From the IMG/VR virus record IMGVR_UViG_3300035232_000745: a stretch of DNA of 64,000 nt; one strand, 5' to 3'. The notes beneath the pieces are model-generated. The model was not told where the DNA came from and ran no database searches. It saw only the letters and a list, made by a program, of their open reading frames with translations. Positions within the stretch are counted from its first letter, which is position 1, and each line of letters starts with the position of its first letter. Positions 4,543 through 52,968 of the stretch are shown piece after piece. The position numbers and the translations under genes were made by a program. The stretch is from a virus.

Positions 4543-4544
4543 CT

Positions 4545-4730: not shown

Positions 4731-7700
4731 GTCAAAGCTAACGCTCTCATATCCCTAAGAGTTGGTACTTTTGCAATATCTGGTGAAAGCATATCTATAC
4801 GTATAGCAAACTTTCTATATCCTAAGAAAGTTCCACCTGTACTTGTATATTCTATAACTCCGCCATTTTGATTTGCAGCTTTAACTCTATATTTGATTTC
4901 TCTATAATCTTGTAAATTAAGATCTGAGCTAAATGAACTTCCACCTTCAAATGCTTCTAACTCCATCCAAGGTATACTTGCAAATGATGCTGAGTCATAT
5001 ACATTCTGCGGTTTAATATAAACTTTAATATCAGAACCAGATGGTTTATACGCAGTTATAACAACTTCCATATCTTCAGCGTCTAAGTCTTCTGCCAATT
5101 CAATTGTTTTACTAATATATTTAGAAGTAGTATCAGCAGTATTTGTAACTCTATATTGATATGCAAGTAAAGAAGATGTTTCTAAATCAATAACGGGCGA
5201 AGTAGTTTCAGAAGATCCGTTTGCCATATCTACCACAATTTCAAATGGTTTCGATAAAGCGATATCGTTTGATCTTGAAAATACTGTAACACCCTTCTTA
5301 TTAAAAGTGTTCTTAGCACCAAATTGCATTGGCAACGCATAACTAGTTGAAGTATTAGCAGGGTCAGTTACAACACTGCGTAATCCTGTGCTAGTGGTAG
5401 AATCATTTGTTTTCATAATTAAAGGCTGCACATAACTTAGATTAATATTATCTACTGAACCGATCGTTCCTTCTATCGTACTTCTTAAACCTGTAATAGT
5501 TTGACCAGCTAAGAACTTTTTAGAATTAGTAGCAGAACTTTTTACAAGATGCATTATACTTCTTTCTAAAGGATTATAATGCGATATAGTACCAGCTATG
5601 ATAGGTGTACCTACAGTACCAGCTCCAGCTTGATAAGATATTTTCTTAGTCGCAGTCATTTCTGTTGAACTATCAACACTTGCGATTTCAAATATTTCTT
5701 TATTTACTCCAGAAGTGATAAGAATTCTATCACCAGCTGCGTAAGTATCTCCTAAAGCTGTACCACTTATAACATTAGTTCCTGAAATCATTGTTACAGA
5801 TGCGCTTGTCGAACCTGAAAGAGCAAGAGCAGTATATACTTCTTCTCCATCACTAAATCTTCCAGTCCAATCAGATAACGTAAAGAATTCATGATCGTCA
5901 TTAGTCATAGTAACTGCACCGGTTGCAGAGTTAAATTTATGTCTATAAATCGTGAACTTAAGATCTTCGTCTTGGTAAGATTTCCAAGCCATGTTATTTG
6001 TTGATGAGAATAGAACTCCATCACCCCAGTCTTGAACAACAGCTTGTCCTTGCGTTGCACCAGGCGTTAAGTCCGTACCACCAACTTTTGATGTAAATGT
6101 TAGATAGTTTGGATCGTTAGCATCTGGCATGATAACAATAGCGTATTCTTTTTCTATATCTAATCTTACAGGCGCATCGAAATCTATGGTTGTTACTGCG
6201 CTAGCATCATCTGAAACATTAACTGCACTTGCTTGTAAATGTATTTTAGAGAAAGGTAAGATTGCAGATGATGGATAACCGTTTACTACTTCTCTTAACA
6301 TTACAGTAATGCCGTTAACTTCAGATTTACGCTTAAAGTATAAATCAAGCTTTGAAGCAAAGATTGAGTTTGCTCCTCTACCCATACCGCTTTTAACAAA
6401 GAACGTTTGAGCTAAAGGATCGATATTAAATGGTCGACCAGCAACGCTTCTCGTAGTTACAGTCGATGTAATATCGAATTCTGGTACTCTAGTAGAAGTT
6501 GTTAAACTGCTTTTTTCTATAGAGATATTATAAGCGTGATAATCCATAGATGCGCGAGAAGTAGATGCAGATTTAATATCACCGAATGTACTACTATCTG
6601 CAACAGTCAGTGTTCTTTCTCCTACGAAGAATGTATTGCCTGGTAATTCGAATACCGCTCTTAAGATACCATTTGAATCTGTACTAATTTCAGTACTGGA
6701 CAAGGCACCGAACGGTTGAACATCACGTGCTGTTGTAGAGTCAGGATCGCCTGCTCTTACTTTATCAGTAACTGCAACACCGTCAAAATAGAAATAATGC
6801 GGTGTGTCTGGTCTTAAACCAGCAATAAATATTTTAATATCTCTTGCTCTCATGAATGGTGAGAATTGGAAATCTGATACAAAGTCACCTACTGTATTGT
6901 TAACTGGAACAGAATTAGGATCAATACCTAAAGTATTAGTTGTATCTGTAAAATCAGTTACTGTCTGCCAAGTACGACCTCCAAGATGGCTCGTAACTGA
7001 ACCGGTATTTACGGCTGTAGTTTGAGTCAAAGGAATAAATGTTTGTAAATTTTCTATAAAGTCTGTGAATGGTGTTACTAAATCTATATCAAGAGTAACT
7101 GGATTCGATGTAGTATCGTGTGCCATATCGTGGCTAGGTGATAATTGACCAGTTCCGTTATAAGACCAATAGTTACTTACTAAGTTTCTAAAGTTGGTAC
7201 CGTATGGTTGCCCAACGATTTTTGCATGATCATTTCTGCCTAATGTAGCTATCTCGGCATCAGAAGTTGATGGGAAGATACTAGATCCTGTTGCTGATTT
7301 ATATTTTAAATCCAGAGGGAATGTAGTTAAACTTGGAGATAAAATGCTGTCATCTTTTTGAATAGCAGCAGAGAATGTTGCATCCTGCAAGTTAGAAATA
7401 TTTGTATCATTAAAAGGATCTACTAAGAAACCGTTTTTAAATCTTGTTAAACCGTTTTCATCAGTCACAACCATATTTTGTGTACTTTGCTCTAATTGGT
7501 TTAAACTTACATAATATTCTAGATTTTTAATGCGCTTATCAAAGCCAGAAATATCTTTCATAGTATAATTTCTGACACCAGAAGCTTTAGTCTTTACTGC
7601 GTAATAATCTTTATTTTGATCTATCGCCTCTTTGGGTGAAAGCGCAGGAAAACCAGGTACTGTTACTTGTGTTATAACTAATTGATCAGCACCGACTTTT

Positions 7701-31612: not shown

Positions 31613-33022
31613 TTATTTTTTAGTAATTGCGTAATAAACTAAACCACCAAGTGCAGCGCCAATTACCCAAGAGAAACCTGACAAGAATGCCAATGAACCT
31701 ACCCAGACAGTCGCTACTGAGAAAATAGCAGGTACAACAAAAGCGATCATAGCTTTTTTGTTCCAACCATTATCGTAGTAATACTCACCATCTTCAGATG
31801 CCGAGAATAATTGTTCTACGTTTAATTTGCCTTTCTTAAGCATGTAGTAATCAACCATCATAATACCGTAGATAGGTGCAAGTACAGCTCCTAAAGTATT
31901 AACAAACCCGAAGATACCGAGCTGTGAAATAGTTGATACCCATAATCCACCAATGATAAGAGCAAAACCTGATGTAATCAAACCACCGAGTTTAAAATCG
32001 ATTTTTGAAGGCATTAGATTAGCGATATCATACGCTGGAGGGATAAAGTTTGCAACGATATTAATACCGATAGTTGCTACGAAAAACATAATCGCTGCAA
32101 CGACAGTCAATGGTAAAGAATCTACCATCGCAATAATATCAGTTGGACTTGTAACCGCTTCACCCCAGATTGCAATAGTACCTGAAGTAACGATAAGTGT
32201 AATCAATGAAAAGAATGCAATATTCAATGGCAAACCAATCAAGTTACCTTTTTTCATTGCAGCTTGTGTTTTAACGTTACGTGAGAAGTCACCATAGTTA
32301 ATTACAACTGCTGCGAAATAAGCGATCATTGTTCCTACAATAGCTACGAATGCTGAGAAAGATGTACCTACGTATTCGCCTGTACCTTCAAAGATTGTAC
32401 CCATTTCTGTAGTAAGTCCTGAACCTGCTTTTACCCAAATAGTGAGAGCCAAAGCAATCATTACTGCGTAAACAAAAGGACCTGCGAAATTTAGGAATTT
32501 AGTAATCCAAGGGATACCTTTCCAGAACAGATATACTTGAAATGCCCAAACGAATAGGAACGATACCCAATCGATTGTACTCATACCTAGCATTACTGCT
32601 TCCCCATTTCCACCTGCTAATGCCGAAATTAATAGCGATACTGCGGTTGATGCGAAATAAGTTTGTGCACCATACCAAAAGATTGCTACAATTCCGCGGG
32701 CCACAGCCGGGAAGTTAGCACCTCTTACCCCCATACTCGAACGAGCCATAACAGGGAATGGGATACCGTACTTAACGCTTGGCTCACCCATCAAATTGAC
32801 TAACCACATTACAAAAAGACCGGCCAACATGATGGCAGCAAATACTGTCCAACCGTTTAAACCAAATGAGATGAATAGAGATGCTGCTAGCGTATAACCA
32901 AACAAACTTTGAATGTCGTTAGACCATACGTTAAAAATCTCGAACGCACCCCATGTACGTTTCTTTTCTGGAATGGGAGCCAAGTCTTCATTATATAAAC
33001 TTGGGTCTTTGTTTTTTAACAT
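31613..33022 (-). CDS. NCS1 family nucleobase:cation symporter (uracil/allantoin/purine permease)
   Basis: LYNEDLAP..RTW, KYGIPFPVMARSSMGVRGA, NYGDFSR, MMVDYY; about 12 hydrophobic helices. Confidence 0.93.
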   Translation of the reverse strand: MLKNKDPSLYNEDLAPIPEKKRTWGAFEIFNVWSNDIQSLFGYTLAASLFISFGLNGWTVFAAIMLAGLFVMWLVNLMGEPSVKYGIPFPVMARSSMGVRGANFPAVARGIVAIFWYGAQTYFASTAVSLLISALAGGNGEAVMLGMSTIDWVSFLFVWAFQVYLFWKGIPWITKFLNFAGPFVYAVMIALALTIWVKAGSGLTTEMGTIFEGTGEYVGTSFSAFVAIVGTMIAYFAAVVINYGDFSRNVKTQAAMKKGNLIGLPLNIAFFSLITLIVTSGTIAIWGEAVTSPTDIIAMVDSLPLTVVAAIMFFVATIGINIVANFIPPAYDIANLMPSKIDFKLGGLITSGFALIIGGLWVSTISQLGIFGFVNTLGAVLAPIYGIMMVDYYMLKKGKLNVEQLFSASEDGEYYYDNGWNKKAMIAFVVPAIFSVATVWVGSLAFLSGFSWVIGAALGGLVYYAITKK

Positions 33023-33096: not shown

Positions 33097-33960
33097 TTAT
33101 CCTGACGTTGCGTCAACAATCATTCTAATGTTCTGAGATATTTTAGCATTAAACTCAGCATCAGTTTGATTATGATTCAAACCTTCACTTAAAGCTCTAC
33201 TAAAACTTGCAGTGACATCATGATTCATCGATAATCTACGACACGCTTCAGCTGTTGCGTATCCTCCACTAAGAAACACAATACGGTTTACACTATGGTT
33301 TGCTGTAAGATTGTGATATAGGTTGGGTACTTCTGGAGGCGTCAGCTTTAAAATAACTTGGTAATCTTTTCCAATTAAGTATTTTTGTAACGCGTCGTAT
33401 AACTCGTGTTCTATTAATTCTTTTTCTTCGTGATCAATAGGAACTTCGGGTTCTACTATTGGCATAAGTCCGTATTCTTGGATTGTATGTGCCAAAGTAA
33501 ATTGCTGCTTTAGAATAGGCTCAACCATATCTATACTTTTAATAATGCTTCGCATCTTAGTTCCGTATATAGGTTCACCTAATCCGTCAGTAGCAAATTC
33601 TAATATTTGTTTTACAGGAAACTGTTTAAGCATCCCGCTTTCTTCACAGCCATCATCTATCTTTAAAAAGGAGTCGATACCTTTATTTGCGAGTTCATTA
33701 ACCATTCCTCGAGTAACTGTATCTTTATAAAGAATTGCGGCCCAAACATTTGTATCGTTGAAATCAGGAGAATTAACCATTCTCATTCTCATTTCGTGTA
33801 CACGATCCATCTTGTTTTCTTCGGTGTATTCACGACCATAACGTTCTAATACACCGCCAGTCGAACCACCGCTGTGGTCCATTGCCGCTATGAATCTTGC
33901 ATCATAGCGGGTTTGGCTTTCTAAAAAATCACCTGCTGTTGTGAATTTTAAATCGCTCAT
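33097..33960 (-). CDS. fda: Class I fructose-1,6-bisphosphate aldolase (bacterial Fda type)
   Basis: FIAAMDHSGGST, FLKIDDG, GTKMRS, PIVEPEV, LKLT (Schiff-base Lys), FLSGGY, ASFSRALSEGL. Confidence 0.9.
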   Translation of the reverse strand: MSDLKFTTAGDFLESQTRYDARFIAAMDHSGGSTGGVLERYGREYTEENKMDRVHEMRMRMVNSPDFNDTNVWAAILYKDTVTRGMVNELANKGIDSFLKIDDGCEESGMLKQFPVKQILEFATDGLGEPIYGTKMRSIIKSIDMVEPILKQQFTLAHTIQEYGLMPIVEPEVPIDHEEKELIEHELYDALQKYLIGKDYQVILKLTPPEVPNLYHNLTANHSVNRIVFLSGGYATAEACRRLSMNHDVTASFSRALSEGLNHNQTDAEFNAKISQNIRMIVDATSG

Positions 33961-35851: not shown

Positions 35852-36367
35852 CTATTCTCCAGTACTACCAAATCCTCCATCTCGATCTGTTTTCTGGTTA
35901 GGTTGAGTTTTGGTTTCAGATATTTTTACCTGTTGAGTTTTTTCTAATACACATTGTGCAAGACGTTCTCCGTCTGAAATAACTGCTAACGAATCTGTTT
36001 CGTTGTTTATCATAATATAAGTTTGTTCTACATAATCAGAATCTATAATTCCTGTACCATTTGCTAATACTAAACCTCTTTTTAACGCGACGCTTGACCT
36101 AATAAACATTTTAAGTACGTGCTTATCCGGTACATCAAAAATTAATCCAGTAGGAATAAGTATTCTTGTATCTGGTGGTAGCTGAAAAGAGTTTGGATTT
36201 TGACCTACACCCTTTACAGTGATGAATACTTCTTTATTCCAGTTATTATACGCTCGAAGTTTATCACCTCTTTTAAAACATGATTTAATATCAAAGGCTG
36301 CTGAACCTTCAGTTGCGTAAGTTGGTAATTCAGCGTTTTCATTCATTCTATAAATTTTCATTTTCAC
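35852..36367 (-). CDS. dut: Trimeric dUTPase
   Basis: AAFD, IRSS, GIIDSDY, ERLAQ, RDGGFGSTG motifs. Confidence 0.95.
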   Translation of the reverse strand: MKMKIYRMNENAELPTYATEGSAAFDIKSCFKRGDKLRAYNNWNKEVFITVKGVGQNPNSFQLPPDTRILIPTGLIFDVPDKHVLKMFIRSSVALKRGLVLANGTGIIDSDYVEQTYIMINNETDSLAVISDGERLAQCVLEKTQQVKISETKTQPNQKTDRDGGFGSTGE

Positions 36368-38726: not shown

Positions 38727-39389
38727 TTATCCTTTCTGATAAGTCGACTTAGTATCAATTGCTACATAATAAGTAGCGGTTTCCCCTTTAAACTCAGAGA
38801 TACCCTTTGCGCAAAGGGTAACATGATAGTTCTGAGGTAGGAGCTTAAGATTATCAGTTTTGATAATAACCTTAAATTCGTCTTGTGTTGTGCCAATTTC
38901 AACACCATAATCATCGGCGCTTGTATCTGCGCTATTAATAGCTTTCAGGTATACTTTACCTTCACTACCAACAAATGCAACTTCATTAAACTGAAGAACA
39001 CCAGCAGCTTTGATTACAGATTGCATGTCGTCCCAAAGAACATCAACAATAACATCTGATGATGGCAATTCGATATCTTTTTCTGGGGCTGCATGTATCA
39101 TTGAAATATCGGCAAACGCGTATTTTGTACGTTGTTTACCTTCAGCAATAGTGAAGTATTTATCATGAAACTCAACGTCAGGGTCCTTATAAAGGCCTAA
39201 AATTGAAAGAAATCTTGATAAATCATATACACATGCTTCAGAAGGTAAGCTTTCAGAGATGGTTGCTTTAGCAACTAATGTTTTCTCTGGTGTGATTGTT
39301 TTAAGTGTATTGCCAGGTTTCAACAAGATAGACTTGTTGATAGTAGAGAAACTCTTAAGTATTGTAAGAGTATTTTCAGAAAATTTCAT
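38727..39389 (-). CDS. gp45: Sliding clamp gp45
   Basis: MKFSENTLTILKSFSTINKSI...VYDLSRFL. Confidence 0.95.
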   Translation of the reverse strand: MKFSENTLTILKSFSTINKSILLKPGNTLKTITPEKTLVAKATISESLPSEACVYDLSRFLSILGLYKDPDVEFHDKYFTIAEGKQRTKYAFADISMIHAAPEKDIELPSSDVIVDVLWDDMQSVIKAAGVLQFNEVAFVGSEGKVYLKAINSADTSADDYGVEIGTTQDEFKVIIKTDNLKLLPQNYHVTLCAKGISEFKGETATYYVAIDTKSTYQKG

Positions 39390-39421: not shown

Positions 39422-39450
39422 ATCTTACTTTAATATTGCGAAAATGTCAA
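39422..39450 (-). promoter_or_regulatory. Sigma70-type promoter TTGACA-N17-TAAGAT for gp45
   Basis: Hexamer match. Confidence 0.65.
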
Positions 39451-40316
39451 CTTTTTTTGTTTTTCTTGTAGCTTCGTTTAGAAGATGACTTATCTGCTGT
39501 CGCTGATACGCCAAGTGATCCTATAGCTCCCATATTTCCCTTGAAGATGTAAGTACCTATATGGTTTATCTTCATCCAAGGACACATCCAAACTTTCATT
39601 CCAGCTTTACGAGATTGTCTGCAAAAGAAGTAATCTTCACTTAGATATCTTTTTGATCCTGCATCAATAACACAATCGAAGTAAGCCATAATCTCATTCG
39701 TGCCGTCAAAGTTTTCAGTGCGGGCATGATCTGGTTTGTATGAATATTCTGGGTAAGCTTTTTTGTATGTTTCAAAAGTTTCTCTTGGAATACACATAAA
39801 TCCTGTACCGCCTTCACCGATTTCTAAAGGTTCTGCCATATTAAAACTTTTAAGTTTATTGACTGGATTAAACACATAATCAGCAGTGTATTGGTCAAGT
39901 TCAAAGGGCGATTCATCTGCTTTACCTTGATCTGCCGCGGCTTTTACTTTTTCCCAAGCTATAGTTTTCTTTGGATATGGTCCAGTAACAATATTATATT
40001 TTTTAGGATCTGCTACTTGTATGGCAAGCATGCCAAGAACATCTCTTGGATCAAAAGCAATATCGCTATCTATGAATATTAGATGCGTACAATCAGATCT
40101 CATAAATTCATCTACCACGTAATTTCTTGCTCTTTGAATTAAGCTTTCATTAAACAAATAATAAAACTTAATCGTAATGCCATTAGCAGCGCATATCATC
40201 GCTAAGTCTGTGCATGATTTAGTATAAGAACCAGTGCAATTACCACCGTACATTGGGGTACCTACAAATATCTTGTATTTTCTAAGTTCTTCCACTGAAA
40301 TTTGTAAATTAGCCAT
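39447..40316 (-). CDS. GT-A fold glycosyltransferase-like protein
   Basis: GTPMYG, SLIQRARN, FIDSD (DxD), GTGFM, LSEDYFFC, H.G motifs. Confidence 0.78.
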   Translation of the reverse strand: MANLQISVEELRKYKIFVGTPMYGGNCTGSYTKSCTDLAMICAANGITIKFYYLFNESLIQRARNYVVDEFMRSDCTHLIFIDSDIAFDPRDVLGMLAIQVADPKKYNIVTGPYPKKTIAWEKVKAAADQGKADESPFELDQYTADYVFNPVNKLKSFNMAEPLEIGEGGTGFMCIPRETFETYKKAYPEYSYKPDHARTENFDGTNEIMAYFDCVIDAGSKRYLSEDYFFCRQSRKAGMKVWMCPWMKINHIGTYIFKGNMGAIGSLGVSATADKSSSKRSYKKNKKS

Positions 40317-40947
40317 TAGGTAACTCCATATCTAATTCTGCTCGAGTGATTGCCTGTAATCTCATGATATCAGCCGCTACATCATGTTTTGCATCGTGAG
40401 CGTTAAATGTAATTTCCCATTTTTCTTCGTCAGGAAACGGACAAAATCCGTTGTTTCCTGGAAAGTTGAACTTTGCATCGATATAAGTTCTCGTATCTCT
40501 TACTTTCCAATAAGGCAAGTAAGCACTTAATTGGTTCTTTTTGTTTGAGATCTCTGCCATTCTATCGAGAATAATGGGATCGAATGTGTTTGACCTACTC
40601 CACCAATAAGAAATCTTATTAGAGCTTAATAAGTAGTCAAGTAGTTTTGCCATGAATTGATTTGGGTTTAAATCGTCTTCGCTTGGTTTTAAGTCAACTC
40701 TTAGTGCAGCAGGTTTATCAAGCCACCATTGCAAATCTGCGCTAGTATACTTACAACCGTGATTCTGCATCTGGTCTTTAATGTCAAGTTTAGATTTCTG
40801 CATTGTAGCTACTAACTCTTGGAAAGAGTAAGGGTTATCGGATTCAAACCTATCCCATTCAAATGTAGTGTAAGCACAATTAATAACTGGTATTACTTTT
40901 GCATCACTACCGATGGTTTCGAAATCTAAAATAAAATCTTTTCTCAT
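40309..40947 (-). CDS. dexA: DEDDh 3'-5' exonuclease, DexA-like
   Basis: ILDFET, WSRSNTFD, RDTRT, HDAKHDVAAD. Confidence 0.88.
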   Translation of the reverse strand: MRKDFILDFETIGSDAKVIPVINCAYTTFEWDRFESDNPYSFQELVATMQKSKLDIKDQMQNHGCKYTSADLQWWLDKPAALRVDLKPSEDDLNPNQFMAKLLDYLLSSNKISYWWSRSNTFDPIILDRMAEISNKKNQLSAYLPYWKVRDTRTYIDAKFNFPGNNGFCPFPDEEKWEITFNAHDAKHDVAADIMRLQAITRAELDMELPNG

Positions 40948-40972
40948 ATTCTCACTTTCGTTACATAGTCGT

Positions 40973-41000
40973 ATTGTATATTGTATTGATAAAATGTCAA
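40973..41000 (-). promoter_or_regulatory. Sigma70-type promoter TTGACA-N16-TACAAT
   Basis: Hexamer match upstream of dexA. Confidence 0.7.
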
Positions 41001-42211
41001 CCGAAAAAGCTTTCGAGGTTATTTTCAGTTACATTCCATTGTTCTGTTGTTTCATCTATATTCGTTTGAAACAAAAAGTCTGTATCTGACCAAGGTCTAT
41101 TTCCTTCGAATACGTGTTTAATCTCAGTAGCCATATCCTTTGCTGTTTCGTAAGGAACGTTTTGGCAGATGTGATTGATAGAATTCTTTGGATCTAACAA
41201 CTCAAAGTCTTGAGGCAAACCCATAATAGTCATTGCTTCTCGAATAGTTATATATCTATCTTCGTATGGATGAGTTAACATTTTTGGGTAATGACCAACG
41301 AAAGCTCCAATATAATCTTTAGGAACCATTGTTCCTCTTCTCATAAGATTGCCTCCAGCCTGAAGCTTTTCATATTTACGTTCACATTTTGGAACTTCTC
41401 TATGATATCCGTTATCACCCATCCATTTAGCTATTCTTTTATAGTCATGACCTGCACGTTCAATCGCGCATTCAGCGTCATTTGCCCTTACGTTTTTTGT
41501 TACCATTATATCATGATATTCTCTATGAGTAATCCCACCATGAACTTCTTCTAAAAGGTAACGATAGTAAGGATCATCCTTAGAAGGAATTTTCTTATTG
41601 ATCACATCCATTTGAGTATTTGATGTTACACCGTTAATAATATCTTCTATTTTCTTGTGAGGTTTATTATAAAAGTGCAGAACAGGAGTTTTTTCACCGA
41701 ACATGTCTTTCTTCCAAAAGAAATAAAATGTACGCTTTCTGAACTGAGGAACACCATGTTTAATATTTTTAGTAAGATATAAAGACATCGAATAACCATT
41801 ATCTAATCCGATTTGTCTAAGCTTATTAAGCATAAACTCGCCTATCTTTCCAGATAGTGATGCAGCGTTCTCTCCCCAAAATACGTTTGGCTTTACGTTA
41901 GAAAGAATATACTCTGCGCTTAGCTCCATCCATTGGTTATTCTCGTTTGTTTCGCCGTGAGCATGATGCATAGTACTTAAACCTGCACACGGACAAACAC
42001 TTGATACAACATCTATTTTCTGGTTTAAGTCAGGAGATTGGCCCTTATCGAGAATATAATAAGGAACTTTATTTTCCCAATAATTCAAAAGATGTTGTTC
42101 ATTATCTTTAAATGCTTCATACGATAAAATATACTCTGGCTTTGAACCAAATACTTCTGTAGATGCAAGAGCTTCACCACCTATTAAGGGTATAATAGTG
42201 GCGTGCTTCAC
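40997..42211 (-). CDS. C5-cytosine methyltransferase-fold protein with atypical SAM motif I
   Basis: CPCAGLS (IV), ENA (VI), GVPQFRKRTF (VIII), RYITIREAMTIMGLP (IX), QNVP (X); motif I reads PLIGG. Confidence 0.8.
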   Translation of the reverse strand: MKHATIIPLIGGEALASTEVFGSKPEYILSYEAFKDNEQHLLNYWENKVPYYILDKGQSPDLNQKIDVVSSVCPCAGLSTMHHAHGETNENNQWMELSAEYILSNVKPNVFWGENAASLSGKIGEFMLNKLRQIGLDNGYSMSLYLTKNIKHGVPQFRKRTFYFFWKKDMFGEKTPVLHFYNKPHKKIEDIINGVTSNTQMDVINKKIPSKDDPYYRYLLEEVHGGITHREYHDIMVTKNVRANDAECAIERAGHDYKRIAKWMGDNGYHREVPKCERKYEKLQAGGNLMRRGTMVPKDYIGAFVGHYPKMLTHPYEDRYITIREAMTIMGLPQDFELLDPKNSINHICQNVPYETAKDMATEIKHVFEGNRPWSDTDFLFQTNIDETTEQWNVTENNLESFFG

Positions 42212-43314
42212 GAAAAGAAATCTTCTATAGTATTTTCTTCGATATCATTATATTCTTTGCCTTGCCAATGTGGATAAAACTCTCTAGAAAGATGGACAGA
42301 CTTTGGACTTTCCATTGCTTTAAAATCAAGTTCTCCTATGCCATTATAGAAATGTGGTGTAATCCATTCCTTAAATTGTACATCTGTTCCTTGAACCTTA
42401 CTCATAGCATATTCTTTAAAATATAAGCGTGCATCATTACGCTCAGCCCAAGAGCCGAAGAACTTTGTGCCTTTATACATGCCAGATTTTGGCAAGTTGC
42501 GGCGTTCATTTTCGATTGGTAATAACTCACAAATCACTTTACTTTCCATATCCAAAGAGTCTACAGCTTCAACATAACGGTCAACAAGAGTTCTTATCGC
42601 TTGTTTAGTATCGTCTTGTCTGCAAAGATGGTGTCTAATATCGATGTTACCAAAGTAACACTCAATATGTTTAACATTATCTCTATTTATGAAACTTTCA
42701 AGGCCCATTTCTAACGCACCATATAAAGTTTTAAATTGAACTGAATTGACATTGTAACCAGGTCTATACATTGAAATAGCATGACTATCTCCAATAACCA
42801 TTCGATCCCAAGTAGGATGTTGTGGTTTGATAGTGATAGCGTTCTTCTGCATTTCTCTTAGATTATCTAAATCTACTTCTCTAAACTCTGGAACTACAGA
42901 ATCAAGATTACCTTCTTTTGCTTTCATAGCGTTAAGCTTATATTCTAACATTGATGCATAATCTGGCATATCATATTCTAATGAATAGACTTGACCTTTA
43001 AATCTGGAAATATTACGAATGTTATATGCATGAGGAAAACCTTTTGTTCCTCCAAAGAAATTAATATCTGTTGCACCTTCTTTACGATCATTACCATGAT
43101 AGATATAAAGATTGTCGTATTGATTAAAATCTTCTTGTTTAGCTGCTTCTTTTGCGGCCGCACCCTGAACAGAAGATTTAGACATAATAATTTTCATTTC
43201 ACCAACATCAAGGTAATGACTAATCATATCCGCATAAATTACACCTTGCGCAGCTCTATGGTTTGGCAATTGAAAAGATATGGGAACAAAAGGCGATGCC
43301 ATTGCTGATTTCAT
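42208..43314 (-). CDS. SGNH/GDSL-hydrolase-like protein of the DNA-modification locus
   Basis: IGDSH, FGNID and SVHL blocks in SGNH order. Confidence 0.55.
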   Translation of the reverse strand: MKSAMASPFVPISFQLPNHRAAQGVIYADMISHYLDVGEMKIIMSKSSVQGAAAKEAAKQEDFNQYDNLYIYHGNDRKEGATDINFFGGTKGFPHAYNIRNISRFKGQVYSLEYDMPDYASMLEYKLNAMKAKEGNLDSVVPEFREVDLDNLREMQKNAITIKPQHPTWDRMVIGDSHAISMYRPGYNVNSVQFKTLYGALEMGLESFINRDNVKHIECYFGNIDIRHHLCRQDDTKQAIRTLVDRYVEAVDSLDMESKVICELLPIENERRNLPKSGMYKGTKFFGSWAERNDARLYFKEYAMSKVQGTDVQFKEWITPHFYNGIGELDFKAMESPKSVHLSREFYPHWQGKEYNDIEENTIEDFFS

Positions 43315-43323
43315 AATATTCTC

Positions 43324-43959
43324 CTAAACAGTTTTTCTAAATTCTTCGTATTCATTTTCTAGAGTAACCCATTGCATTTTAGTAAGGCCCGACCAAGAAT
43401 GTCTTCTATCCCATACTATCCACATATAAGCAATCATACCACCTATCTGATCTTCTTTTTCGATAGGTTCTATATGATCTGAACTGAATTTAACTCTATC
43501 AGATAAAAAGATTATATCACTAGGAGGATTATTTGTAAACAATTTCTTTCTCTTCTTACCCTCTAAAAATGTAATACGTAAAAACATTGCAGTATAGTCA
43601 TATTCAGATATGAATTTCTCTGCTAGTTTTCTTGGTAAATCTTTGTGATAAGGAGGATTTGTCACAACACCATCTGCAAATTGCGGTTGCAGTTCCATTG
43701 CATCATAAGGTGTGTGGACTTCAGTCAAGCAATTATCATAAGAGTTTAAATCATAACTAGTTACGCTGTGACCCATTCTTTGAAGTTGCTTAGATATATT
43801 ACCACGGCCAGCACAAGGCTCAACAATATTTTTTGGCGGTTTACAATACTTTCCTAGAACGAATGTTGCCAAAGGAGGTGTTGGATAAAAATCATTCTGT
43901 CTTCTATTAGCATCGTCCTTTTTTACTCCGGTGTAAATATCAGTTAAATTAGTTGCCAT
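43324..43959 (-). CDS. DNA amino-methyltransferase (N6-adenine type)
   Basis: DFYPTP, EPCAGRG, TNPPY. Confidence 0.88.
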   Translation of the reverse strand: MATNLTDIYTGVKKDDANRRQNDFYPTPPLATFVLGKYCKPPKNIVEPCAGRGNISKQLQRMGHSVTSYDLNSYDNCLTEVHTPYDAMELQPQFADGVVTNPPYHKDLPRKLAEKFISEYDYTAMFLRITFLEGKKRKKLFTNNPPSDIIFLSDRVKFSSDHIEPIEKEDQIGGMIAYMWIVWDRRHSWSGLTKMQWVTLENEYEEFRKTV

Positions 43960-43964
43960 CGATA

Positions 43965-44486
43965 CTACATTCTAATTTCAATAATGTCATTCCAAAACTC
44001 TTTCTTCTTTTTTCCGTGTATTATCAAATGCAATCTTTCTTCGTCAGATTTATTTTCGACCCAATGAGAATAGTGTACATTCAAAACAAATGCTGCACCT
44101 TTATGGTATGGTACTTCTTCTCCATTCAGAATGAACTTACTTCCATTAGGATATGAAATTGACATATTAAGAGTATCTAGCCAATTGTGTTCTGGAACAT
44201 CGCTGTGTTCAGCAATATATCCCTCAGGTTTTATAACTAAAAATCTAACGTCATCTAGTCTATCATATGGTAATGATTTGATGAACTCTACGGTCTTAGT
44301 ACATTTTAATCCTACCTCTGTAATATTGTCTTTAATGAATAAAGATGCTGCAAACCAGTCCTTATGACCATCTTGCGGTCTATTGATAACTAATTCTTCT
44401 TTGACTGATAGGTATTCTTGTTCTATATCGTAACAAGGAATATCGAAATTCATCTTTACCCATTGAGCATCGCTATTTCGGTGCAT
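43965..44486 (-). CDS. 2OG-Fe(II) oxygenase, aspartyl/asparaginyl beta-hydroxylase-like
   Basis: IAEHSD...HWVENKSDEERLHLII (HxD...H...R). Confidence 0.8.
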   Translation of the reverse strand: MHRNSDAQWVKMNFDIPCYDIEQEYLSVKEELVINRPQDGHKDWFAASLFIKDNITEVGLKCTKTVEFIKSLPYDRLDDVRFLVIKPEGYIAEHSDVPEHNWLDTLNMSISYPNGSKFILNGEEVPYHKGAAFVLNVHYSHWVENKSDEERLHLIIHGKKKKEFWNDIIEIRM

Positions 44487-45031
44487 TAAACCAATTCTTC
44501 TTCTTTCAAGCCATAGATATCTACACCAGCTTCCATTAGCATCGGCCTAGATTGTTTATTCCACATATCAGTCCATGTTTCGGGGGTAGAGTCTGTAGGT
44601 AACATTATCCAGAGAGATTTTACACCAGCTTGAATAACACATTTAGTACAGTCTGAACAGACCGGTAATCCATAAACATAAAGAGTTGCTCCTTTTAATG
44701 ATACGCCATTATATAAAGCATTCATCAAAGCATTCATTTCTGCATGAACAATACGAGGATATTTCTCAGCTCTGTTATTTAATCTATCATCAGTATCAGC
44801 AATACCCTTTGGAAACCCGTTATATCCTGTCGCTAGAATATTTCTTTCATCGTTTACTGCTACAGCACCGATTTTACTAGAAGGGTCCTTACTCCACGTA
44901 GAAACCATTTTGGCCATATTCATGAAACGAATTGGCCATTTAGTTGTACTAGGATCTAAGAAACTATCTACGGGGTATTGTTTGTACATTCTTTTCATAT
45001 ATTGATCGTATGGTTCGTAATCATCAATCAT
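44486..45031 (-). CDS. cd: dCMP deaminase
   Basis: SKDPSSKIGAV, TGYNG, HAEMNA, PVCSDC. Confidence 0.93.
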   Translation of the reverse strand: MIDDYEPYDQYMKRMYKQYPVDSFLDPSTTKWPIRFMNMAKMVSTWSKDPSSKIGAVAVNDERNILATGYNGFPKGIADTDDRLNNRAEKYPRIVHAEMNALMNALYNGVSLKGATLYVYGLPVCSDCTKCVIQAGVKSLWIMLPTDSTPETWTDMWNKQSRPMLMEAGVDIYGLKEEELV

Positions 45032-45242
45032 CGGATATCATCCTTGTTTCCATTTTTTCTTTTATATCGTAAACTTTTTCTTTCTCAATAATAGATATTA
45101 TGAGCTTTGTTAAGTCTAGGTCCTTTTGTAAGAACATCATTTTCTGTCGAATTTTTTTAATTTCACCTTCGTAAAATTCTATTTCTTTTTCTTTACGAAG
45201 TTTGGTTTCTAGTATGTCTGTAATTTTTATTAGTTTGCTCAC
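45024..45242 (-). CDS. Small coiled-coil hypothetical protein
   Basis: 72-aa ORF, GTG start with GGAG SD. Confidence 0.7.
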   Translation of the reverse strand: MSKLIKITDILETKLRKEKEIEFYEGEIKKIRQKMMFLQKDLDLTKLIISIIEKEKVYDIKEKMETRMISDD

Positions 45243-45244
45243 GT

Positions 45245-45922
45245 TTACTCCACTAAATTAAAGTGACGCTCGTACACGTGCAAGTTCATTACTTGCCAAG
45301 TAAGATCACCTTTTGTAAGGTTATGTCCTTCTTCATTTAGATTATCAATAGCTCTATCCATAAGGTGTTGAGCCCACGCATAATCATTCTTGTAACCAAA
45401 GACTACATCGTTTGAACGCATTTGTGATACCATATGCAACTTATTATCGCGAATATAGAACGTTTGCGCATTAGTACAAATGAAATCTGATTTACCATTC
45501 TCGTTGTATTCAACCCAAATAGATGGACGATTATAAACCATCTGAGCACGACGGCTATCTGGATTAGCAATCAACTCTTCAATTGCACTATAATATTGAT
45601 TATAAAACTTTGGAGAGTCTACAAGATGTCCGTAGTTTGAATTGATTTCACCGTTTTCATTAGCAGCATATTGCCAAGCAGCAGGCGGATCTTTATCTAA
45701 ACCATGAATATCCATAATATTAGTAGAACCGCTTTCATACCAAGCTAGCTCTGCATCAATATAAGATTTAACAGGTGTGCCAAAGATAGCTGGTTCATCA
45801 GCAATAAATGATGCACCTAACATTTCAATTGTTTTAGCACCGGTTTTGTCGATGGTAAAATTCTTATCGCTTAGTTCGTTAAAGAAGTATTCACGAATAT
45901 TACTTACATTATTTTGTTTCAT
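45245..45922 (-). CDS. gp42: dCMP hydroxymethylase (T4 gp42-type thymidylate-synthase homolog)
   Basis: ELAWY, INSNYG, DFICTN, MRSNDVVFGYKNDYAW, NLHVYERHF. Asp at the position of E. coli ThyA Asn177 indicates dCMP specificity. Likely start 45922; the ORF track gives 45952. Confidence 0.88.
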   Translation of the reverse strand: MKQNNVSNIREYFFNELSDKNFTIDKTGAKTIEMLGASFIADEPAIFGTPVKSYIDAELAWYESGSTNIMDIHGLDKDPPAAWQYAANENGEINSNYGHLVDSPKFYNQYYSAIEELIANPDSRRAQMVYNRPSIWVEYNENGKSDFICTNAQTFYIRDNKLHMVSQMRSNDVVFGYKNDYAWAQHLMDRAIDNLNEEGHNLTKGDLTWQVMNLHVYERHFNLVE

Positions 45923-46217
45923 ATCTATCATCCATATCTTTGCCTTCATCATAAGCTACGCGAAGGATCATTAGCTGAGTTAATGCATGGTCTAAATGAA
46001 GAAGACCAGATTCTGGATCAATATCTTCTTTATCCCAATAGGCCATGAGGTGACGCTGAAGAGAAGAATAAGATCTGCCCCATTCAGTAGTATTAATATC
46101 ATCACGCCAATTGTTTTCAGAATATTTGGCTGCACCAAAAGCAAATACCTTAGCTGCAGCTTCAATAGCTACTGTAGGTACAAGATGAATTGGTGGTTTG
46201 TTATTGTCGTATTTCAT
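45909..46217 (-). CDS. DUF5664 (dNTP diphosphohydrolase-like) protein
   Basis: KYDNNKP..LVP...FGAAKYSENNW...DPESGLLHLDHA. Confidence 0.82.
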   Translation of the reverse strand: MKYDNNKPPIHLVPTVAIEAAAKVFAFGAAKYSENNWRDDINTTEWGRSYSSLQRHLMAYWDKEDIDPESGLLHLDHALTQLMILRVAYDEGKDMDDRYETK

Positions 46218-46250
46218 TATATAAAGTCTCCGTGTGTATTACATTGATAT

Positions 46251-46279
46251 ATTCTATCATGTAATTCTTCAAATGTATA
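46251..46279 (-). promoter_or_regulatory. Sigma70-type promoter TATACA-N17-TAGAAT upstream of DUF5664/gp42
   Basis: Extended -10 TG-n-TAGAAT. Confidence 0.55.
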
Positions 46280-46369
46280 CTAAGTTTTTTCTTTTTGTGC
46301 TTTTAATGCTGCAAGAATATAACGTCTATGCTGTCTATATTCTAATACTATTTGTGCAAATGTTTTCAT
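46280..46369 (-). CDS. 29-aa basic peptide (MKTFAQIVLEYRQHRRYILAALKAQKEKT)
   Basis: ATGA overlap with upstream stop; manual translation. Confidence 0.45.
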   Translation of the reverse strand: MKTFAQIVLEYRQHRRYILAALKAQKEKT

Positions 46370-47442
46370 GCTAGAAACTCCATTACTGAGTGTGAACTAC
46401 TTACTTTCTTTTCTAATGCAGCAGGCCTCCATATATCTGGATACATTGGCTTGTCGTCTTTATCCATCATATAATATCCAGAAGCATTTCTTAAGCCTCT
46501 GCCTGAGCGATCAAGATTATTTAAAAACCTTACGTAAATACATAAAGTATCTTCATGCGCAACAGCACTTGTACCAAGCTTTTCTGTAAGATCTGCAAGT
46601 GCTAAATCGTGATATTCTACTTGACTCATTCCTTTAGGTTTATGAAACATTTGTTCAATTGCTTGTCTTGCGTTATTACCACAATATAAACTAGAATTTG
46701 GATCAACGTATTCTGGGTGGTATGTAGCAATATCAGCAATCATTTGAGCATAAGGAAAGTTCCAACGACGAATACCTCTATCTATATTCTTCTGATTAAG
46801 TCTATCAGTTAATTCTTTCTGATCTAAAGGAGCACCATTATTCATAGCTAAATTTTCTTTTAGCCATTCAGTTAATTGTTTCATAAGATCTAAACCGAAG
46901 CTCGTAATGTGTTCTGGTAAATTCATTCCTTTTATCGGAGTTGGGTTTTGGTTACCAATAGTAGAAAACATTTTTCTATCAGCAGCTTTCCAAACCTTCA
47001 TTAGATCTGCCATTTCATCTGCAGTTTCTAATAAACCAAAATGAGATACAATAGAATGATGATATCCATGCCAATCCTTGCCGGCATAAAAACCAGAGCC
47101 AGTACTACGATGAACATAATAGGCGTAAACATATTCGAGTAAAGACCATTTGTCTGTTACATAATTTTTAACACGTTCTTGTACATCTACTGGTCTTTTC
47201 TTAAATACTATTTGGTTTGTTCCATAATTTATATCTTGATTAACATTATTAAAGCCTTCGTATGTACGAGACACACAATTATAAGCTGGAATATTTTGCA
47301 TTAATGGATCATTGATATTTTTATCGGCCTCGGGCCCAAGATAATCGAGATCACCGATTAAACAATTTTCTTCTAACCATTTAGATTTAGGCCAGAAGTA
47401 ATCTACGTAACAATCATAATTTGGTCTTGTTTCAAGTTGCAC
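46366..47442 (-). CDS. aGPT-pyrophosphorylase / amino-acid:DNA transferase-like protein (HhH-glycosylase-related fold)
   Basis: FPYAQMIADIA...YCGNNARQAI...HEDTLCIYVRF matches the family's F..Q...D / G..A / E..LC layout; located in the modification cluster. Confidence 0.65.
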   Translation of the reverse strand: MQLETRPNYDCYVDYFWPKSKWLEENCLIGDLDYLGPEADKNINDPLMQNIPAYNCVSRTYEGFNNVNQDINYGTNQIVFKKRPVDVQERVKNYVTDKWSLLEYVYAYYVHRSTGSGFYAGKDWHGYHHSIVSHFGLLETADEMADLMKVWKAADRKMFSTIGNQNPTPIKGMNLPEHITSFGLDLMKQLTEWLKENLAMNNGAPLDQKELTDRLNQKNIDRGIRRWNFPYAQMIADIATYHPEYVDPNSSLYCGNNARQAIEQMFHKPKGMSQVEYHDLALADLTEKLGTSAVAHEDTLCIYVRFLNNLDRSGRGLRNASGYYMMDKDDKPMYPDIWRPAALEKKVSSSHSVMEFLA

Positions 47443-47453
47443 GTCTGACTCCT

Positions 47454-48065
47454 TTATAAGTTATGATTATATATACAACGGGTTTCTTTTCTGTGGTTAT
47501 AGAAGAATTTAAGTTTCTTAGATCCATCAACTTCTTCTGTCCAATTGTTATCGTAATCTGGATTACAAGGAGCAAGCGTTTCACGTATAGTATCAAAAGG
47601 TGCTACACATCTCCAACGTACATCATAAGTATTTTCTGCTACCTTTGAATAACAACCAAATATCACTACATCAACACATTCTGGATATAGCTTACGATTA
47701 CGTGCCAACTTATTACCCATATAATTAGACATAGTTAACCATTTCATTTCAAAACCTTCAGGCATTTTACCTGGATCTTGTGCATTCTTTACTTCACACC
47801 GCATACCATTCCACTCAACATCCCAATTATGTGAGTCTGGTATAGTATGATCAAATTCTGCTGTATTTTTTACTGCACCTTGACGTTCTAATGCGAACTC
47901 AAGTATAACACCTGCAGTCGTGTGTGCCATCACTGTTTCAAGAGTGCGGCCTCGTCTTTTTGCAGGGACATCATAAATGTCCTGTGCCATTGTTTTAATG
48001 TAAGAAAGCTCGTCATCGTTTAGTTCGATAACGAGCGCTTCAGGTAATTTTAAATTAGATATCAT
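47454..48065 (-). CDS. Putative PD-(D/E)XK nuclease
   Basis: G..LEFA...WDVEWNGMRCEVKN (E...D...EVK). Confidence 0.5.
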   Translation of the reverse strand: MISNLKLPEALVIELNDDELSYIKTMAQDIYDVPAKRRGRTLETVMAHTTAGVILEFALERQGAVKNTAEFDHTIPDSHNWDVEWNGMRCEVKNAQDPGKMPEGFEMKWLTMSNYMGNKLARNRKLYPECVDVVIFGCYSKVAENTYDVRWRCVAPFDTIRETLAPCNPDYDNNWTEEVDGSKKLKFFYNHRKETRCIYNHNL

Positions 48066-49785: not shown

Positions 49786-50196
49786 CTATACTGCCTTATT
49801 TAAATCTCCGTGATTACCATCGTGATTAGGTGCTTCCCAACCTTCAGGCTTAATAAGATCTGGTAATCCGAAAGGGTTCGGCCTACCTTCTTTAACACCG
49901 ACATCTTTCGATACATTAGCTTTGTATACACGATCCCATGCTTCGTTTGCATCTACGCCGAATACATCTAATGTACCAATAGCAAATACACACATATCAA
50001 TTAAGCCGTCTACGATTTCTTCTGGATCTTTTGCTTCAACTGCATCGAGTGTTTCATCAAGTTCTTCTTTACACATAGACAAACGAAACTTAAGGTACTT
50101 ATCCATCAAGTCTTTATTATCTTTGTTTTCATCAAACCATTTGCGTACACCAAACCGGTTATGCATCATATAGATGTCGTTTACCCAATCGCTCAT
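49786..50196 (-). CDS. MazG-like / all-alpha NTP pyrophosphohydrolase
   Basis: EELDE...EIVDGLIDM...AWDRVYKANVSK...KPEGW. Confidence 0.85.
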   Translation of the reverse strand: MSDWVNDIYMMHNRFGVRKWFDENKDNKDLMDKYLKFRLSMCKEELDETLDAVEAKDPEEIVDGLIDMCVFAIGTLDVFGVDANEAWDRVYKANVSKDVGVKEGRPNPFGLPDLIKPEGWEAPNHDGNHGDLNKAV

Positions 50197-50427: not shown

Positions 50428-52968
50428 CTAAGCAAAAAAATCTTCTAACGTATTGACGTGTTCAGCATTCCAACCAACTGCTTCTAGAATAGCTTGCAAA
50501 GGGCTTAAGAATACTTTGTCGAATTGTTTTTCGTAATCGATATATTTGTTTAACCCAAGTTCTGGAGGTAAGACACCAGGGAAAGATATGATGTTCTCTC
50601 GTATTGGATTAGGCGTTTTTAGATATACGAACTTTATTTTGTCTCCACCTTTAATACTATCATACTTTTTATCTAAGCCGTTTTGTCTAAGATAGTGGTT
50701 ATAAAGTATCGAACCACGAACATGCATAGGACAGCCTTTTTTGTATAGAGATCCTGATCCTCTATCACGATATTTATCTATGTTGTCTGTGCCTGAATTC
50801 TTTGCAATGTCTTCAGCAGGAAGATTAAAGAACTTTGCTTTAAAGTCTGCGATAAATTCTTGAGTTTTTGTTTCACCTTCGTTCATAATAACCTTGAAAG
50901 ATTCTTTAAGTTTATCACGACATACTTCAGGCGTCGAAGACCTTACTGACTCTAAACCAGTAACTGATATCTTTGGCTCTTCATAGTGTACACCTTCTGA
51001 GTTAAGAGTATTCATAATGTAACGCTTCTTAGCGATGAAGACAGATTTATCAGTAATCTTTTCTCGTGCCATTTGCATAGCTTGACGATACGCACCCATC
51101 TTCTTTGCGAGTTCGATATAACCAGCTTCTAACACTGGTTCAATCTTCATCTGGCAAACTTTGTCAAGAAACTCTTCACCTTTCTTGCGGTCAACATCAA
51201 CAGTACCAAAGGCATTCTCTACGATTGGTGCCATATCAACATAGATAGAGTCTGTATCGATATAAACGATATAGTCTTTATCAGTCTTTAATATTTTATT
51301 TAGATAGTCATTAACTGCTTTCTGTCCATAACGAATAGACAATTGACCAGATGTAGTAATAGCTTCGGCCATGTCGTTAATATAGTATAGAAAGTAGATA
51401 TTTGCTGTAGCACCATACAAACTGTTCATAGCAATTTTGATAGCCATTTGAGAGTTATGTAATTGGTTTGCTTCACGCTTTAACAATTCTTTCTGTGCAG
51501 GATCAGTAGCATCTTCAAGATCTTGCTCTACTTTAAGCATTTTCTTCTTGATGATCTTACGATTACCGTAGTATTCATCAATGATGCTAGGAATTACACC
51601 TTGGAATTGATTAGTAAAACAAGCACCATTAGCACATACAGACATATCTTCTCTATTACTTTGGTACTGACCATTCAATACCATATCTTGTGTAACATGA
51701 TCTCGTTCTTCTGACAAATAAGTTTCGGGAGACATATTATATTGTAACATTAAGTGCGGATACAGAGAGTTAAGATCAAATGATACGATCCAAGGATGCA
51801 TACCTACACGTGGATCTTTAACATAACCACCTACAAGATCGCCAGCTCTTTGACCTGGGCCACCTTTGACTGGTGGAACACGGCCTTCGCTCATAAGTTT
51901 GCGATATAAAGTTGTTTCCCAAATACCAACTGTACCAAACGCATCGTTATAGTTTACACCACCGCCATATGCGACAGTCATAACGAGTTGGAGTAATGAG
52001 GTTTCATCTTCAAATCTTTGGATTAACCACGTGTCTTTAAGGTTATAGTCAAGATATAGTTGTGGATTTTGTTCGTATAACGCGTTAAGGTTACCATACT
52101 CAGAGTAATCTAATTTCTTTTCACCTAATACAACGTTAGCAATATGATCAAGCTTCCAAGACTCTTGCGGACCATACTTATAGCCAAACTTCTTAAAGCA
52201 ATCCATATAGTCAATGATAGAGACACCAGAAATCTCATATGTGTTTTGCATTTTACCATAGAACTCTCGGCCTGTTGGTCTAATGCTACGCCAAGGTGAT
52301 AGATCTTTTACCCATTCTTCACCGAATAAGTTCTTCATGCGAGTTATAAGATATTGTATATCAAAGTATTCTACGTTCCAACCAGTAACGATATCAGGAT
52401 AATTATTGATCCACAACTCTTTGAAGCGCTTAAGTAAAGCATGCTCAGTATCAAATTCCATGAAATGAATGTTATCTGGATCAAGATCTAGTAAAGTCTT
52501 ACTTTTGTCATAACCCTTGCGGCCAAGCAAGTGGTAATCAGAAGACTTCGAAGATTTGTAAGCTATAGATGTAATTTCTTTGTCAGCAGTATTAACATCT
52601 GGGTATCCTGTAGCGATATCAACCTCAATATCAAATGATACGATATTGATCAATGAAGGATCATATTTGATTTCACCTGGGTAATTTTCTTGAATAAACT
52701 GAGCTACATAGTTACTAGACCCTGCTATTTCAAAACCATGCACATCTTTATATTGTTCAATGTAATCCTTTGCATCACGCATCGAGTCCATCTTAGTGGG
52801 CTCTAGATATTTTCCAGAACTAAGAGACTTGTATTTAGTATCGTGCCTTACTCCTGTAAATAGTGTTGGTTGATACTTAACTCTGCGAGAAAAGCTTTTG
52901 CCATTCTCATAACCTCGCCAAAGGATATTGTTGCCGAAACGTTCGACTGATGTGTAAAATTTAGACAT
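50428..52968 (-). CDS. gp43: Family B DNA polymerase gp43
   Basis: [33 protein letters not shown]; uninterrupted. Confidence 0.98.

Follow-up and report, generated by a model that had tools for sequence, protein, structure and literature searches.

Among described systems, the closest to the locus reported here are the thymidine hypermodification pathways of phages M6, ViI, PaMx11, PhiW-14 and SP10, which combine a 5-hydroxymethyldeoxyuridine (5-hmdU) DNA kinase with amino-acid:DNA transferase (AADT) enzymes (PMC8989533, PMC11472151), and the glucosylation of 5-hydroxymethylcytosine (hmC) in T-even phages, which uses gp42, gp56 and the alpha- and beta-glucosyltransferases. The locus is a block of genes in IMG/VR virus record IMGVR_UViG_3300035232_000745, a stretch of 64,000 nucleotides to which we refer as the window, and which comes from a marine T4-like myophage that has not been cultured. 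The block encodes a gp42-type enzyme (P0001), an AADT/aGPT-Pplase-like helical protein (P0002), and a protein (P0025, the chimera) joining a T4 beta-glucosyltransferase (BGT)-like N-terminal domain to an SGNH domain (Table 1). Reasoning by analogy, we propose as possible, if somewhat short of probable, that the block represents one version of a cassette, widespread in T4-like phages and so far uncharacterised, that hypermodifies hmC after replication through acyl activation and Cys-dependent substitution.

The cassette resembles the thymidine pathways in that a thymidylate-synthase homologue supplies the hydroxymethylpyrimidine, a helical enzyme that has a glycosylase fold and an E-x3-C motif would act after replication, a second family is fused or adjacent to that enzyme, and variable pyridoxal phosphate (PLP) or other tailoring genes lie alongside. 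It differs in the base, which is uracil there and cytosine here, and in the BGT-N/SGNH chimera that stands where those pathways have a P-loop DNA kinase; its helical protein also lacks an AADT or PF18723 profile match, and its proteins carry clamp-type C-terminal tails. With the T-even system it shares gp42 (48% identical to that of T4 by tblastn, with the same signature residues), a location in the b-gt slot between gene 42 and uvsX, and a chimera N-domain that appears similar to the BGT acceptor domain, including the NFFGG motif, whereas it lacks alpha- and beta-gt genes and an SGNH domain replaces the UDP-glucose-binding half of BGT.

The phages RB69, DLP3 and RL38J1, which have glycosylated 5-hydroxycytosine (PMC13326640), are likewise T4-like with a gp42 homologue and no glucosyltransferase, and their clusters adjoin the polymerase, with nucleotide-sugar genes nearby in some relatives; they use D169N synthases and GT-B arabinosyl or hexosyl transferases, whereas here D169 is kept and no GT-B protein is seen. 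A further route to hypermodified 5hmC proceeds through a C5-cytosine methyltransferase (C5-MTase), a TET/5mYOX enzyme and a glycosyltransferase (PMC8256090). The window does have C5-MTase-like, 2-oxoglutarate (2OG) oxygenase and putative glycosyltransferase genes in one block, but its oxygenase is of the Asp/Asn beta-hydroxylase type, not the TET/JBP type, and is not conserved, and hmC would be made before replication by gp42.

Table 1. Genes of the block and its flanks, with positions in the window, strand and principal matches.
Feature	Positions	Strand	Match or comment
gp45 sliding clamp	38727-39389	-	phrog_223 1.1e-69; presumed docking site for shared tails
P0026, GT-A-like putative glycosyltransferase	39447-40316	-	phrog_1574 2.8e-60; weakly supported
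Rv2179c-like DEDD 3'-5' exonuclease	40309-40947	-	PF16473 8e-11, phrog_255 8.9e-23
P0027, C5-cytosine methyltransferase-like	40997-42211	-	PF00145 4.5e-20; start overlaps SGNH gene end; tail NNLESFFG
P0025, T4 beta-glucosyltransferase-like N-domain plus SGNH Ser-His domain	42208-43314	-	tail NTIEDFFS
P0293, small NPPY methyltransferase	43324-43959	-	phrog_799 1.1e-38; TNPPY and EPCAGRG motifs
P0294, Asp/Asn beta-hydroxylase-type 2OG-Fe(II) oxygenase	43965-44486	-	PF05118 1e-15
dCMP deaminase	44486-45031	-	PF00383 4.9e-19, phrog_174 7.8e-43
P0001, gp42-type 5-hydroxymethyl-dCMP synthase (predicted)	45245-45952	-	T4 dCMP hydroxymethylase 1b49 E 3.4e-65
PF18909 (dGTP_diPhyd_N, formerly DUF5664) protein	45909-46217	-	PF18909 2e-28; end overlaps gp42 start
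P0002, 358-aa AADT/aGPT-Pplase-like helical protein	46366-47442	-	fold match only; E297-D298-x-x-C301
P0024, 203-aa protein of unknown family, possibly nuclease	47454-48065	-	no Pfam or PHROG match
MazG-like all-alpha NTP pyrophosphohydrolase, candidate dCTPase	49786-50196	-	PF01503 1.4e-10; adjoins gp43
gp43 DNA polymerase	50428-52968	-	phrog_262 4e-294; tail NTLEDFFA

The gp42-type enzyme and the two core families

The match of P0001 to the T4 enzyme, which has the thymidylate-synthase fold, spans residues 16-235. Its SDFICTN segment, which contains the catalytic Cys, and its KNDYAW segment align with SDFMCTN and RNDYAW of T4, and the motif MRSNDVVFGYKNDYAW places an Asp at the position of N177 in ThyA. 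Asp is thus present at all three of the ThyA positions L143 (SDFICTN), D169 (MRSND) and N177 (KNDYAW), and the same signature residues are found in a relative (L001) and in Aeromonas phage 31. The gp42 homologues of RB69 and DLP3 make 5-hydroxy-dCMP, for which the marker is ThyA D169N (Lee et al. 2026, PMC13326640); the MRSND segment of P0001 keeps the Asp. Because Asp169 is retained and Asp is also present at the L143 and N177 positions, the product is predicted to be 5-hydroxymethyl-dCMP (5hm-dCMP), and we consider P0001, on its signature residues, to be a cytosine-specific enzyme of the hydroxymethylating type.

P0002 has no Pfam, PHROG or PDB sequence match, and a PDB profile search was likewise empty. 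Ten of its relatives have no Pfam match either, and no match was obtained with tblastn or a near-identity DNA search in the phage collection. A profile search of 1.84 billion representative proteins recovered 122 relatives, and the family comprises 122 clusters at 50% identity. An AlphaFold2 model built on 21 homologues (pLDDT 84, pTM 0.83) gave nothing below E 0.1 in the PDB with Foldseek, and matched viral AADT-domain proteins in BFVD (E 2.5e-14, TM 0.77), with weaker matches to the SP10 5-hmdU DNA kinase and to Pplase1 proteins. When the model was compared with 48,161 PDB representative chains, the top match was PaMx11 gp46 (8z2m_A; Z 8.6, root mean square deviation 4.4, 210 residues aligned), a 5-phosphomethyldeoxyuridine glycinyltransferase, followed by helix-hairpin-helix glycosylases and DUF2419. 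The model is therefore consistent with an AADT/aGPT-Pplase-like, all-alpha glycosylase-like fold as in gp46.

In PaMx11 gp46, the metal at O4 is bound by Glu243, and Cys247 has been proposed to act as the nucleophile on C6 (PMC11472151). The segment reads V-E243-T-I-L-C247, compared with EDTLC in the P0002 family, and in a 93-member alignment of that family E297 and C301 are present in 84/84 ungapped sequences and D298 in 78/84. From the motif, and because in both proteins it falls in the final helix of the common core, we infer that E297 and C301 are equivalent to Glu243 and Cys247. AADT enzymes act together with a P-loop 5-hmdU DNA kinase on hydroxymethyluracil DNA; here the block lacks such a kinase, it is the SGNH chimera that is conserved as the partner, and gp42 is predicted to be cytosine-specific.

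The chimera was modelled at pLDDT 88. Residues 165-351 adopt an SGNH fold, with SGNH esterases and O-acetyltransferases matching at Z up to 15.2 (2hsj, over residues 163-349), and in its family the SGNH blocks I, III and V (G175-D-S-H178, G222-N-I-D225 and H341) are invariant in 25/25 sequences. Family residues 29-115 align with residues 28-100 of T4 BGT (hhalign probability 75%, E 2.5e-5, 63 columns), and DINFFGG in the chimera corresponds to SINFFGG in BGT, with N85, G88 and G89 invariant in the family; tblastn with T4 BGT matches the same N-terminal place at E 0.087. The aligned part of BGT belongs to its acceptor (DNA) domain. The C-terminal UDP-glucose-binding domain of BGT has no counterpart, in that the SGNH fold stands in its place and there is no Pfam T4 glucosyltransferase match. 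Both the alignment and the model thus suggest that the chimera keeps the hmC-DNA-binding half of BGT and has an SGNH domain in place of the UDP-glucose-binding half. The family is large, with more than 815 clusters at 90% identity.

The two families are closely linked. Seven metagenomic proteins of 639-790 aa among the 122 P0002 relatives are fusions, in which the N-terminal part is P0025-like (BLAST E 1e-28 to 1e-48) and the C-terminal part P0002-like (E 2e-12 to 5e-31). There are 80 IMG/VR loci with a P0002 relative, and 45 of these are informative in having at least 4 kb of upstream sequence. The chimera is present in 44 of the 45, in 43 of them directly upstream of the P0002 relative, and the other frequent neighbours are gp42 (43/45), dCMP deaminase (41/45), a MazG-like protein (36/45), a PLP-like protein recognised by a weak match (24/45) and a UDP-glucose-dehydrogenase-like protein (15/45). 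The common order in relatives is gp43, MazG, gp42, deaminase, SGNH, (PLP), AADT-like, UvsX, gp41, and that of T4 is 41-40-uvsX-segA-b-gt-42-imm-43; the core pair occupies the T4 b-gt slot, since it sits between gp42 and uvsX in relatives as b-gt does in T4.

The C-terminal tail of T4-type gp43 binds the gp45 clamp. Endings of the form hydrophobic-polar-x-F-F occur in just three of the 189 open reading frames of the window, those of gp43, the chimera and the C5-MTase-like P0027 (Table 1). In relatives, a relaxed version of this ending occurs in 59/80 AADT-like proteins (L-x-E-F-M/L), in 22/64 chimeras and in 17/23 gp43 proteins, compared with 0-3 members in each of eight other neighbouring families. 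That gp43 and the cassette proteins have such tails in common points to a replication-coupled action on DNA. Taken with the fusions, the adjacency, the position and the BGT-N similarity, the tails make it probable that hmC in DNA is a joint substrate of the chimera and the helical enzyme.

A preliminary description of this DNA, made from the letters alone, had placed these genes in one co-oriented block, and all of those listed are present at the places given, on the minus strand. Its view that gp42 acts on dCMP and not dUMP is consistent with the Asp at the ThyA N177 position, and the D169 position adds the hydroxymethylating type. Its reading of 46366-47442 as aGPT-PPlase-like agrees with the structural matches and the E-x3-C motif, while sequence profiles do not match, and it rightly saw no T4 alpha- or beta-glucosyltransferase in the window, where tblastn with both enzymes gives nothing better than E 0.08. 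The expectation that the genes co-occur in relatives holds for the P0002 family, which is almost always accompanied by gp42, dCMP deaminase and the SGNH protein, and fails for the NPPY methyltransferase and the 2OG oxygenase, which are not conserved neighbours. The SGNH protein, which had been cast as a tailoring enzyme, is instead a core partner of the AADT-like protein, with a BGT-like N-domain that had been missed.

A small P-loop kinase (141 aa; APS-kinase/AAA_18-like, 1.4e-7) is encoded between UvsX and gp41 in 15 relatives (e.g. L021 4964-5386). This gene, which the window lacks, does not adjoin the core pair, and its product may be a nucleotide kinase like RB69p045.

A proposed route and its rivals

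We infer the product and chemistry of the cassette as follows. In a first step, well supported by strong homology, gp42 would make 5hm-dCMP, the deaminase and NTP pyrophosphatases would shape the nucleotide pools, and gp43 would synthesise hmC DNA. The chimera would then dock on the gp45 clamp through its gp43-like tail, its glucosyltransferase-derived N-domain would hold a flipped hmC, and its Ser177-His341 centre would transfer an acyl group to the 5-CH2OH, such that the ester stands in for the phosphate set by the DNA kinase in thymidine hypermodification. Next, the AADT-like protein would attack C6 with Cys301, expel the ester and add a nucleophile, which could be an amine, an amino acid or some other group, to give a 5-(X-methyl)cytosine. 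More speculatively, genes of the window subclade (C5-MTase-like, GT-A-like and exonuclease) may tailor the product or merely accompany the pathway. We have modelled the sequence of acyl activation and then substitution on the kinase/AADT route and on the mechanism of gp46, and we put it forward tentatively, as a possibility of somewhat less than even weight. The window phage DNA probably carries a chemically undescribed cytosine decoration.

Several observations weigh against this proposal. In the window itself the two core genes are not adjacent but 3 kb apart. There is no sequence-profile link between the P0002 family and any AADT or PF18723 family: hhalign of the broad P0002 family gives a probability of 0.9% to PaMx11 gp46 and of 0.1% to PF18723-type neighbours, and its hidden Markov model (HMM) has no significant match to ORF233c of Aeromonas phage 31, ORF25/26 of phage phiAS4 or the PF18723-type neighbours. 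A Z of 8.6 is modest for a helical protein, and the equivalence of E297/C301 with the gp46 residues is one of motif and helix position, not of residue superposition. The BGT-N similarity of the chimera extends over some 70 residues, with a probability of 75%. Most SGNH enzymes are hydrolases, and there is no obvious acyl donor in the cytoplasm. The GT-A-like gene in the block makes simple glycosylation of hmC possible.

This last point leads to an explanation in which hmC is glycosylated in T-even style by the GT-A-like protein, with sugars supplied in relatives by adjacent UDP-sugar enzymes, and the sugar is then modified by the SGNH and AADT-like proteins, for instance through O-acetylation. 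The subclade conserves the GT-A-like gene, the pair is flanked by UDP-glucose dehydrogenase-like and epimerase genes in 15/45 loci, a UDP-galactopyranose mutase gene lies beside the chimera in Aeromonas phage phiAS4, and sugar O-acetyl groups are a frequent target of SGNH enzymes. However, none of the 80 IMG/VR loci has a GT-A-like homologue within 10 kb, the chimera appears to retain the hmC-DNA-binding half of BGT without the UDP-glucose half, and it is not evident what a Cys-bearing AADT-like enzyme would do to a sugar; we regard this explanation as unlikely. An improbable variant of the esterification proposal is that the chimera alone makes the final base, a stable 5-acyloxymethylcytosine, while the helical protein is a base-flipping or DNA-binding helper and no nucleophilic substitution takes place. 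Fusion of helical and catalytic domains is known from SP10-type kinases and has a parallel in the SGNH-helical fusions here, and the partner in sister phages is a protein with the PF18723 kinase helical domain; yet the invariant E-x3-C and the many invariant polar residues in both partner types fit a catalyst better than a scaffold, and hmC binding could already be provided by the apparent BGT-like domain of the chimera.

That the genes are unrelated auxiliary or nucleotide-level enzymes clustered in a hyperplastic region of T4-like genomes, and the DNA contains plain hmC, would accord with the lack of conservation of the 2OG oxygenase and NPPY methyltransferase and with the C5-MTase-like homologues that stand alone in cyanophage S-TIM5. 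It is difficult to reconcile with core families that are fused, adjacent in 43/45 loci and linked to gp42 down to 35% identity, or with clamp-type tails confined to gp43 and cassette proteins, and we consider it quite improbable. Least credible is that the acceptor base is not hmC at all, with the gp42 homologue making 5-hydroxy-dCMP or hydroxymethyl-dUMP: the T4-like gp42 homologues of RB69 and DLP3 are indeed 5-hydroxycytosine synthases (PMC13326640), and hydroxymethyluracil phages also have a dCMP deaminase (PMC8989533), but the window enzyme and its counterparts in L001 and Aeromonas phage 31 have Asp, not Asn, at ThyA positions 169 and 177.

In its broadest form our proposal, of esterification and displacement, is that T4-like phages of the oceans, of fresh water and of Aeromonas share a new activation chemistry, in which a clamp-tethered chimera esterifies hmC and a Cys-dependent transferase of glycosylase fold replaces the ester, lineage-specific donors giving an undescribed family of 5-(X-methyl)cytosines at the replication fork; we hold this as a possibility, rather less likely than not.

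Cultured carriers and significance

Homologues of the chimera are present in 43 phage records, 38 from Aeromonas phages, two from Stenotrophomonas phages (phage IME13) and three from Tenacibaculum phages, and cultured carriers include Aeromonas phages 31, 44RR2.8t, 25 and phiAS4. In phages 31 and phiAS4 the chimera is accompanied by a gp42 that reads alike at the signature positions, and Tenacibaculum phage PTm5 has the chimera and no gp42 match. In phage 31 the chimera is the N-terminal part of ORF233c (795 aa), which has a weak PF18723 match at its C-terminus (E 0.0036); given the non-significant HMM match, we do not claim a P0002-type domain there. A sodium:solute symporter gene adjoins this fused form (L005 7408-8931). 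In phiAS4 (L008) the chimera is a gene of its own, and the UDP-galactopyranose mutase gene (2775-3839, PF03275 5.9e-54) is two genes upstream of it.

Genes 42 and 56 occur without a glucosyltransferase in Aeromonas phages 44RR, 31 and 25 (Petrov et al. 2010, PMC2993671). If the proposed route is correct, it would explain this point, which has stood open since 2010, and would widen AADT-type hypermodification beyond thymine to include cytosine, through an activation that does not use a kinase. Novel bases in DNA have a bearing on restriction and on CRISPR evasion, they bias virome sequencing, and their enzymes are now biotechnology tools. A full-text literature search combining SGNH, hydroxymethylcytosine and phage found no paper, and one combining AADT and hmC found thymidine pathways and reviews only.

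Subclade genes and the setting of the block

The window chimera belongs to a subtype about 30% identical to the chimera of most loci. Four contigs (L090, L092, L099 and L100) have the same subtype, at 63-78% identity, and share a C5-MTase-like gene overlapping the chimera end, followed by a GT-A-like gene, an exonuclease and gp45. The gene upstream of the chimera is of P0002 type in L100 (75% identical), and in L090, L092 and L099 encodes a PF18723 protein (the 5-hmdU DNA kinase helical domain, HMUDK_hel). These two partner types have no detectable sequence similarity to each other, and both have E-x3-C; we interpret the swap as a displacement within one fold class, which argues that the role is conserved. 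In three sister cassettes a myo-inositol-1-phosphate-synthase-like gene (PF01658 3.4e-9) lies between the deaminase and the helical partner, and L099 additionally has ferredoxin and radical S-adenosylmethionine (SAM) genes (L099 1-331 and 6617-8366; L090 7212-8489; L092 6425-7705). Such neighbours hint that donor groups differ among lineages.

The Pfam match of P0027 covers only HMM positions 45-323 of PF00145. C5-MTase motifs IV, VI, VIII and IX (VCPCAGLS, GENA, QFRKR and REAMTIMGLP) are conserved in five homologues, whereas the SAM-binding motif I (FxGxG) is not found, the five reading IIPLIGG and the stand-alone homologue of cyanophage S-TIM5 (L103, NC_019516) IIPLVGG. Homologues at the same position in the four subclade contigs are 56-74% identical. 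In S-TIM5, a thymidylate-synthase homologue (3766-4602) lies 2.4 kb from this IIPLxGG protein (6986-8203) and reads ARSND...PLDMF; the Asp at the ThyA N177 position suggests a dCMP-directed enzyme.

P0026 has homologues 55-74% identical in the same four contigs. The open reading frame is present as the preliminary description had it, but its GT-A identity, the weakest call among the listed genes, draws on Glyco_transf_21 at E 0.0049, below the cutoff, a PHROG glycosyltransferase match at 3.4e-5, a DSD motif and an Atlas neighbour cluster with Anp1. Homologues of the DEDD exonuclease are found in L090, L092 and L099. The C5-MTase-like, GT-A-like and exonuclease genes are thus conserved in the window subclade only, P0293 is found in just 1/80 loci, and P0294 is absent from 80/80 loci and from L090, L092 and L100; the earlier idea that all ten genes form one pathway does not fit this distribution. 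P0024 has homologues in L100 (37% identity) and L099, and had no match to Pfam or to the DenB-like protein of phage 31. A weak precomputed match of the L100 homologue to T4 endonuclease IV was not reproduced, and an assignment as endonuclease IV, which we do not adopt, stays a lead.

The PF18909 gene lies directly upstream of gp42 in L092, L099 and L100, and the MazG-like protein matches the DR2231 MazG-like NTPase at E 1.8e-4; both are conserved together with gp42, and their specificities are putative. A 171-aa dUTPase-family protein (35852-36367) was considered as a gp56 dCTPase and rejected, since it resembles a conventional dUTPase. An overlap of 44 bases between the PF18909 gene and gp42 (45909-45952), and one of 4 bases between the SGNH and C5-MTase-like genes, suggest translational coupling.

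The whole block, bounded by gp45 and gp43, is on the minus strand. Other T4-type genes in the window encode gp46/47, gp55, a gp41-type helicase, gp44/62, RegA, UvsY and topoisomerase II, and the nearest cultured relative of its gp43, at 44.5% identity, is found in cyanomyophages. P0002 fragments at 98-99% identity occur in an assembly labelled as a prokaryote (G001; 3.6 Mb, 270 contigs), on contigs C166, C108, C69 and C93 (L094-L097), together with two more P0002 copies at 36-37% identity; the assembly, into which several phage contigs have been binned, is uninformative as to the host, and we rejected it as a host clue. Outside the block, the window encodes a full-length NCS1 cytosine/purine/uracil permease (31613-33022, PF02133 1.7e-83), adjoined by a gene for a 287-aa protein (33097-33960) with a weak class-I aldolase match (3.1e-6). 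Both are unusual as phage auxiliary genes, and the NCS1 nucleobase importer could supply a modified-pyrimidine pathway.

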